Virus genome (UHGV): UHGV-0286550
DNA length: 21,407 nucleotides
Direction: 5' to 3' (one strand)
DNA from: a virus
Positions within the stretch are counted from its first letter, which is position 1. Each line of letters starts with the position of its first letter. The translations under genes and the position numbers were made by a program. Positions 8,820 through 9,230 of this stretch are shown here, piece by piece. Under the pieces are notes generated by a model, which did not search any database, was not told the DNA's origin, and saw nothing but the letters and a program-made list of their open reading frames with translations.

Positions 8820-9230
8820 GTGAAGAAAATGGTTTTTGTGGCGGCATTGCTGACAATTACCCAACAAGTGCATGCTTCAGCAGCTATTGTAGCCTCTACC
8901 GCCGCGACTACGGCTGCTGTAGCTGCTGCGAACTCTGCGAATATCGCAAACCAACAGGCACAGCGTGCTGCTAATGCATCAGCCAGCGTTCACCCAATCA
9001 CCATTAAGAGCAGTAAGCAAAATCTGGGATTTATAACGTGCGGCACGCGTTCTAATGAAGCTGTAGGCTCACTGGGATGTACGGTATATGGCGATAGTGA
9101 GCGCAGAGAAATTCCATGGAAAACGTGGCCCGGATACGTTCTTGGCTCGAAGCTCCCGGCCAGTTATGAGGTAAACGCCGTGTCGTTTGATCACTATAAC
9201 GGCGTGGCAACTGTCTATTTCACATACTGA
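8820..9230 (+). CDS. Secreted/periplasmic protein with signal peptide and Ala-rich linker (136 aa)
   Basis: GTG start with a strong SD AAAGGAGG at 6-nt spacing. N-terminus MKKMVFVAALLTITQQVHA is a classic Sec signal with an AxA-like cleavage site, followed by an Ala/Thr/Asn-rich low-complexity segment and a C-terminal domain with two Cys. Confidence 0.6.
   Translation: MKKMVFVAALLTITQQVHASAAIVASTAATTAAVAAANSANIANQQAQRAANASASVHPITIKSSKQNLGFITCGTRSNEAVGSLGCTVYGDSERREIPWKTWPGYVLGSKLPASYEVNAVSFDHYNGVATVYFTY

Follow-up and report, generated by a model that had tools for sequence, protein, structure and literature searches.

The 21,407-nucleotide (nt) stretch of DNA analysed here, referred to as the window, comes from the virus genome UHGV-0286550 and contains an open reading frame (ORF) at positions 8820-9230. 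It is well supported that 8820-9230 is a genuine accessory gene of a Mu-like Escherichia coli prophage. Our data further indicate that its product, a member of the family PHROG 8805, is very likely an exported, envelope-located accessory protein of enterobacterial phages. PHROG 8805 is catalogued but uncharacterised, with no described function, structure or literature. We hypothesized that the product acts in superinfection exclusion, which is our leading guess at a mechanism and to which we give a probability of about one in three.

We found that the ORF closes with a TGA stop codon (9228-9230, + strand) and that it carries the RefSeq label WP_032300908.1, hypothetical protein, on an E. coli chromosome that is 100% identical. 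Pairwise ratios of nonsynonymous to synonymous substitution rates (dN/dS) against four homologues ranged from 0.12 to 0.62 for the whole gene and from 0.07 to 0.56 for its C-terminal domain, and because of these values we conclude that the gene is real and under purifying selection. The translation signals are consistent across relatives, since a GTG start with an MKK N-terminus (GTG-AAR-AAR) is also found in the homologues of phage Av-05, the P1-like plasmid pE2863-2, the Mu-like prophage Ec55, KLB16, and KW1E. An earlier note on this DNA, made from the letters alone, had singled out the Shine-Dalgarno (SD) sequence of this gene as a strong one. Its duplex with the anti-SD sequence (-12.9 kcal/mol) is indeed the best among 32 annotated + strand genes, and 6 nt separate GGAGG from the GTG start. 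The same note had feared that translation might begin at the internal ATG at 8829 and that the signal peptide would then be lost. That ATG is a poor start, 15 nt from the SD sequence, and the stated consequence was mistaken, as initiation there would drop only Lys2 and Lys3 of the n-region and retain the hydrophobic core.

We next consider the evidence for export. By rule-based analysis, the N-terminus reads as a Sec signal peptide cleaved by signal peptidase I (SPase I), the rules being a positive n-region, a hydrophobic h-region of 7-15 residues, and small neutral residues at -3 and -1. The n-region MKK (+2) is followed by an 11-residue h-region (MVFVAALLTIT) and the c-region QQVHA, after which comes Ser; V at -3 and A at -1 agree with what is classically seen at SPase I sites. 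Despite differing peptide sequences, n-, h-, and c-regions and an A-x-A-type site are present at the N-terminus of all 42 aligned relatives. The lipobox [LVI][ASTVI][GAS]C is absent from the 8820-9230 product, whose first Cys is residue 74, while a P1-like subgroup of the family carries one at Cys17, reading L-S-A-C in P0076, P0082, P0088, P0103, and P0124 and L-S-S-C in P0092. Close kin of these members (P0104-P0108) have Ser where the lipobox Cys stands, so lipoprotein forms (e.g., L005 7001-7405) and soluble forms switch naturally inside one family. Judging by these motifs, at least some PHROG 8805 members should be lipoproteins. A lipoprotein that lacks Asp at +2 goes to the outer membrane under the +2 rule. 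Since the lipobox members carry His at +2 (Cys-His) and no Asp inner-membrane retention signal, they would be sent there. The signal peptide is kept throughout the family and a lipobox is swapped in by one subgroup, which suggests that targeting to the envelope, and not the mode of anchoring, is what has been conserved. The export and Sec signal peptide put forward in the earlier note are therefore supported at the sequence level. The gene call for one distant relative (P0120, L009 6001-6573) is probably over-extended at its N-terminus, with a signal-peptide-like start (MKTGHIIFSVALALVSVQSC...) 72 codons in.

Behind the signal peptide lies a 37-residue spacer that contains 17 Ala (46%), 5 Ser, 4 Asn, 3 Thr, and 3 Gln. 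The description of this segment as a low-complexity linker was right in that an Ala-rich linker is present, but it understated its conservation, as many spacer positions are invariant in relatives that are at least 70% identical. The spacer is also helical in the AlphaFold2 model, at a predicted local distance difference test (pLDDT) score of only 56-72, and its length varies within the family, with distant relatives having a short Pro-containing linker instead. The best heptad register places Ala in 8 of 10 a/d positions, and it is possible that the spacer forms a coiled-coil stalk. In a shuffle test the Ala heptad pattern gave p = 0.07 for the 8820-9230 product; the pattern reached significance in the relatives P0058 and P0105 but in none of three further ones. 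A match to PF11839 was returned for a single relative (E 0.29) in a Pfam scan of the 42 relatives.

The model joins the spacer and the signal peptide into one continuous helix (residues 4-53), which raises the question of whether the protein is instead anchored in the inner membrane, either by an uncleaved signal peptide or by the Ala-rich segment, as a bitopic protein with a periplasmic domain. The segment ASAAIVASTAATTAAVAAA has a Kyte-Doolittle value of 1.53, near the usual cut-off, and signal-anchor-release (SAR) domains have an Ala/Ser/Thr-rich composition that the Ala-rich segment resembles. We regard this arrangement as quite improbable. A good A-x-A site stands right after the h-region, which is predicted to be too short for a membrane anchor, and on the Hessa scale no 19-residue stretch sums to less than +3.2 kcal/mol, which is unfavourable for membrane insertion. 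Furthermore, distant relatives that lack the Ala-rich segment retain a canonical cleavable signal, and the confidence of the modelled helix is low.

The C-terminal part of the product is modelled by AlphaFold2 as a confident alpha+beta domain of ~70-80 residues, with a pLDDT of about 90 over its core. When modelled alone, the domain reached a pLDDT of 86.5 and a predicted template modelling (pTM) score of 0.74. The modelled elements are a strand (residues 69-74), short strands (80-82, 86-90, and 95-99), a helix (103-111), and two further strands (117-124 and 129-135). The motifs GF(I/V)TCG, SLGC, IPW..PGY.LG, and ATVYF.Y are conserved across the family, and both Cys residues are invariant (Table 1). 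Cys74 and Cys87 are probably linked by a disulfide, which would fit a periplasmic location. The earlier note had described a three-part protein made of a signal peptide, an Ala-rich linker, and an ~80-residue domain with two Cys, and had proposed structure prediction as a check on it; the model and the conserved motifs bear out this architecture.

We found that the product matches PHROG 8805 (unknown function) over its full length (E 7.4e-87, positions 1-136 of 136), as do all 42 aligned relatives; every PHROG that the product matched is of unknown function. A word-indexed search returned 55 close relatives and a profile search 112, while an exhaustive HMMER search with the C-terminal domain against 1.84 billion representatives returned about ten small relatives or clusters only. 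Several repeat proteins of 650-2,700 amino acids (aa) in the latter search, whose scores were summed from 5-10 weak repeat matches, were judged spurious on inspection of their sequences. Where an organism is given for a family member, it is Escherichia, Salmonella, Shigella, Citrobacter, Rahnella, or Cronobacter, and two further members belong to phages isolated on Klebsiella. By these searches PHROG 8805 appears to be a small family confined to phages of Enterobacterales. Scans of the product against Pfam, NCBIfam, and PADLOC (PADLOC 0), and a Pfam scan of all 42 relatives, gave nothing significant; the only hits, to DUF7153 (E 0.057), GspM (E 0.83), and the low-complexity 'New_glue', were below threshold. 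A sequence profile search of the PDB returned only a chance match to FtsI (E 1.3). Literature searches on the family, under its accessions, PHROG number, and database name, and on phage proteins resembling RcsF turned up no relevant work.

Members of the family are spread over unrelated phage types. The identical protein occurs in six complete E. coli genomes, and a close copy in 64 of 5,426 (47 chromosomal, 19 on plasmids). The virulent phage Av-05 (Vequintavirinae) has a homologue that is 72% identical. P1-like phage-plasmids of ~90 kilobases (kb) carry the gene in an accessory array between ref and hot/humD/phd-doc, and in the ~45-kb unclassified phages KLB16 and KW1E (Klebsiella, E. coli) its preceding neighbour encodes a cytosine methyltransferase, and a few small genes separate it from the terminase gene downstream. 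No universal partner gene was found among these neighbourhoods; in Av-05 and pE2863-2, but not elsewhere, the gene behind the homologue is ead/Ea22-like.

The region around 8820-9230 is 100% identical to Mu-like prophages on E. coli chromosomes. The gene is preceded there by genes for a c-repressor-like and a ner-like product, a Mu-type transposase (A), a MuB-like ATPase, DUF3164, and DUF2786, together with several small genes. It is followed by a 92-aa gene and then by genes for GemA, Mor, two holins, an M15 endolysin, and head proteins. With A and B upstream and GemA and Mor downstream, the placement in a Mu early region that the earlier note had proposed is confirmed. The same note had called an exported product unexpected among Mu early genes, which holds for Mu itself only. 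The Mu-like prophage of strain Ec55 also carries a homologue, and two diverged Mu-like phages have relatives (33-40% identical) downstream of a Gp11_C-domain gene. Three diverged Mu-like lineages thus share one location for the gene, with gemA following one or two genes later. Phage Mu has no homologue, and tblastn found none in any deposited Mu-like phage. Mu gp13 and gp14, which occupy the equivalent slot in Mu, were considered as counterparts and are unrelated to the 8820-9230 product.

In phage Mu, transcription of the corresponding array starts at the early promoter once a prophage is induced or a cell is infected. The 8820-9230 gene is tightly packed behind the preceding gene in the orientation of the early genes, and a simple sigma-70 scan of the + strand from 8000 to 10086 found no promoter-like site. 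These observations bear on whether the gene is instead a lysogenic-conversion or fitness factor, expressed from the repressed prophage and conferring, for example, immunity to a periplasm-acting toxin or a host interaction. Its low-GC, moron-like cassette, its presence in so small a share of the complete E. coli genomes, as expected of an accessory trait, and the UniRef name of one relative ('Prophage exported protein') are in keeping with such a role. The missing upstream promoter-like site, the position behind an early-array gene, the conserved slot upstream of gemA in diverged Mu-like phages, and the presence of the gene in virulent Av-05 all speak against it. We consider it very improbable, and it is the least likely of the three functions that the earlier note had suggested; the other two, superinfection exclusion and receptor masking, are plausible.

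Homologues in a virulent phage and in early operons favour a role in lytic infection. It is well supported that the product carries a cleavable Sec signal peptide, and, presumably after cleavage, it would be released to the periplasm. The mature protein of ~117 residues would consist of an Ala-rich, probably helical spacer carrying the compact alpha+beta domain, probably held by the Cys74-Cys87 disulfide. We propose that, during lytic growth, the domain would bind a component located either in the periplasm or on the periplasmic side of the outer membrane, and that the infected cell would thereby be protected from further phage attack through a block of adsorption or DNA entry. An envelope factor active during infection fits the early and accessory arrays of temperate and virulent phages in which the gene lies, its constant slot in Mu-like phages, the interchange of soluble and lipoprotein forms, and the lack of a conserved partner gene. 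Exported phage proteins that exclude superinfecting phage include T4 Sp (spackle), P1 Sim, T5 Llp, and Cor of T1, phi80, and N15. To our knowledge, each precedent for a small exported phage protein made in infection is a superinfection-exclusion protein.

Several observations weigh against superinfection exclusion. We infer early lytic expression from gene order and a simple promoter scan only. The product has no similarity to annotated exclusion, lipoprotein, or defence families in PHROGs, PADLOC, Pfam, or NCBIfam, and the annotated PHROG matches among the 42 relatives are weak, single-member hits (tail fibre, tail, lipoprotein, structural) that include no exclusion family. A fold search likewise returned nothing significant, with BFVD giving a family member only. 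The phages that host PHROG 8805 are known to use different receptors, and a receptor-specific mask would not be expected in common among them. Lastly, the Ala-rich segment is weakly hydrophobic over 19 residues and may have some membrane association.

The spread of the family over phages with different receptors favours a generic envelope target, which speaks for the idea that the product is a periplasmic regulator or helper of lysis, or an inhibitor of a host periplasmic enzyme. Here its partner would be a holin, endolysin, spanin, host hydrolase, or nuclease, and it would tune the timing of lysis or protect phage DNA or progeny. T4 RI is a small, signal-bearing periplasmic regulator, and the 8820-9230 product is likewise small, predicted to be exported, and placed in an inferred lytic expression group. 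The gene, however, never adjoins a lysis cassette; in the window, ~1.9 kb that includes gemA and mor separates it from the downstream holins and endolysin. Lysis genes also vary (M15 peptidase in the window, GH108 in Ec55) while the 8820-9230 gene is kept, and no lysis-related PHROG was matched. We judge a lysis-related role to be decidedly unlikely.

We also asked whether the C-terminal domain resembles known envelope proteins of the host. In the DUF1471 fold, four strands form a sheet in the order 2-4-3-1 and a helix connects strands 2 and 3; RcsF is reported to have this fold (PMC4092069). The order of elements predicted for the 8820-9230 domain (strand, turn, strand(s), helix, strand, strand) is compatible with it, and in hhalign the C-terminal hairpin aligned on the equivalent DUF1471 strands. 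The overall plan of RcsF is also alike: within its 134 aa, a lipobox is followed by a disordered linker and a Cys domain at the C-terminus, and PHROG 8805 proteins of 134-136 aa consist of a signal peptide or lipobox, then a linker, then a Cys domain. On this basis the product could be an envelope-stress or cell-surface modulator that acts like YhcN/BhsA/SrfN or RcsF and alters Rcs and capsule signalling, surface properties, or biofilm behaviour. No sequence homology was detected. The hhalign probability was 2% against DUF1471 and 0.7% against RcsF, hmmsearch in both directions stayed below 6 bits, and none of the 42 members matched PF07338 (E <= 10) or PF16358. DUF1471 proteins are generally without Cys (PMC4092069), and RcsF has four Cys in two disulfides, as opposed to two Cys in a different arrangement in PHROG 8805. 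The control sequences for DUF1471 and RcsF were validated against Pfam (PF07338 was matched by the DUF1471 controls) and supplemented with fetched homologues. DUF1471 and RcsF, a known same-fold pair, score equally poorly against each other in hhalign, so that the sequence tests speak neither for nor against a shared fold. Membership in DUF1471 or RcsF is thus not supported by the Pfam, hhalign, and hmmsearch results, while a fold common to PHROG 8805 and DUF1471/RcsF is a weak lead from the model. We rate an envelope-stress modulator as unlikely. The more specific notion, that PHROG 8805 is a phage-borne derivative or mimic of the RcsF/DUF1471 fold, is a long shot. Such a protein would intercept envelope-stress sensing in the periplasm or, as a lipoprotein, at the outer membrane, for example by competing with RcsF for BamA/outer-membrane proteins (OMPs) or IgaA, and would switch the Rcs capsule/envelope response on or off during infection. 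If true, this mimicry would be a previously undescribed strategy by which unrelated phage lineages control host surface state and secondary infection.

Table 1. Features of the 8820-9230 gene and its surroundings, in positions of the window.
Feature	Position	Strand	Basis or remark
Coding sequence, 136 aa, GTG start, PHROG 8805 member	8820..9230	+	ORF exact, database match, dN/dS below 1
SD sequence AAGGAGGTG	8807..8815	+	Overlaps TAA stop (8805-8807) of upstream gene
Sec signal peptide, residues 1-19 (MKKMVFVAALLTITQQVHA), predicted SPase I cleavage between VHA and SA	8820..8876	+	n/h/c rules; same organisation in 42 relatives
Ala/Ser/Thr/Asn/Gln-rich spacer, residues 20-56	8877..8987	+	Composition; helix model; variable length
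C-terminal alpha+beta domain, residues 57-136; folded core ~69-135	8988..9227	+	AlphaFold2, conserved motifs
Cys74 codon TGC	9039..9041	+	Invariant, 42/42 aligned relatives
Cys87 codon TGT	9078..9080	+	Invariant, 42/42 aligned relatives
Low-GC block: upstream 59-aa gene, 8820-9230 gene, and following intergenic region	8628..9384	+	GC content at third codon positions (GC3) / GC
21-codon stub ORF (MEFSESRSNNTMKAITVTRRS)	9239..9304	+	Start matches ead/Ea22-like gene

The gene lies within a low-GC block whose genes have a GC3 of 0.42-0.46 and whose intergenic region has a GC of 0.41, compared to a GC3 of 0.55-0.58 in the flanking Mu-like genes. This composition fits a horizontally acquired cassette. 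The stub ORF behind the gene has an SD sequence (TGAGG) and first five codons (MEFSE) that match the start (MKFSK) of the ead/Ea22-like gene following the homologue in Av-05 and pE2863-2, after which the similarity ends. The stub marks a recombination or mosaic joint just inside the lost next gene of the cassette. Together, the low GC3 and the matching stub indicate that the gene travels as a cassette between unrelated phage types. When 8600-9400 was compared with the phage collection by megablast, only the 59-aa gene just upstream (8628-8807, GC3 0.42) gave a match, to Escherichia phage HEMP4 at 92% identity.

Further features were noted in the surrounding DNA. The 154-nt AT-rich gap to the next gene holds a perfect 13-base-pair inverted repeat at 9335-9381 (GCAGACCAAAACA-TG-TGTTTTGGTCTGC), overlapped by a second repeat of the motif GACCAAAACA. 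It has no T-run on the + strand, and its arms recur in prophage Ec55 with two non-compensating changes; possible roles are those of an operator, a site of recombination, or a weak terminator. Directly after gemA, at 10055-10114, is a strong intrinsic-terminator-like hairpin of 9 pairs (7 GC) followed by TTTTTT. TGTACA-16-TATAAT, the only promoter-like site in 8000-10700, stands after the hairpin and just before mor, and this arrangement between gemA and mor suggests that, in the prophage of the window, mor is transcribed separately from the early array. The endolysin slot is filled differently in the window (M15 metallopeptidase, 11777-12154) and in strain Ec55 (GH108, L007 11279-11824); between the same two prophages the first holin is an identical protein and the second differs. 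In the bacterial flank left of the prophage, positions 29-67 on the - strand match the Rfam JUMPstart RNA (58.5 bits vs. a gathering score of 35); in RefSeq the site falls within an RHS-repeat pseudogene annotated as truncated.

Exported phage accessory proteins are a class that includes known superinfection-exclusion and receptor-masking factors, and few of them are characterised. PHROG 8805 is a 136-aa stand-alone family with a confident domain model, found in phages of E. coli, Salmonella, Klebsiella, and relatives that are Mu-like, P1-like, rV5-like, or ~45 kb in size. It is therefore a tractable candidate for a phage function directed at the envelope in a generic way. That soluble forms switch naturally with lipoproteins hints at the site of action. 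If it is true that phage entry is blocked, this would bear on the host range of phage therapy in strains that carry such prophages or phage-plasmids.

The 8820-9230 product can be compared with several known small envelope proteins. The alanine zipper of Lpp/OprI (PF11839) is likewise an Ala-rich helix right after an export signal, although the heptad pattern falls short of significance here and the segment is missing in distant relatives. The 8820-9230 domain differs from DUF1471 proteins (YhcN-BhsA-McbA-SrfN, PF07338) in that additional strands precede its helix after the first strand, the helix is shorter, and a Cys pair is conserved; DUF1471 proteins are also chromosomal, whereas PHROG 8805 is phage-borne. 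RcsF (PF16358) shares an export signal, a non-globular linker of ~30-50 residues, and a C-terminal Cys-containing alpha+beta domain of ~80 residues, and its lipobox recurs in one PHROG 8805 subgroup, while the 8820-9230 product has no lipobox and only two Cys. T4 Sp, P1 Sim, T5 Llp, and Cor showed no sequence relationship to PHROG 8805 in PHROGs, Pfam, or PADLOC, and Llp and Cor are receptor-specific; like the 8820-9230 product as we propose it, they are small phage proteins made during infection that carry a Sec or lipoprotein signal and work in the periplasm or on the inner side of the outer membrane.

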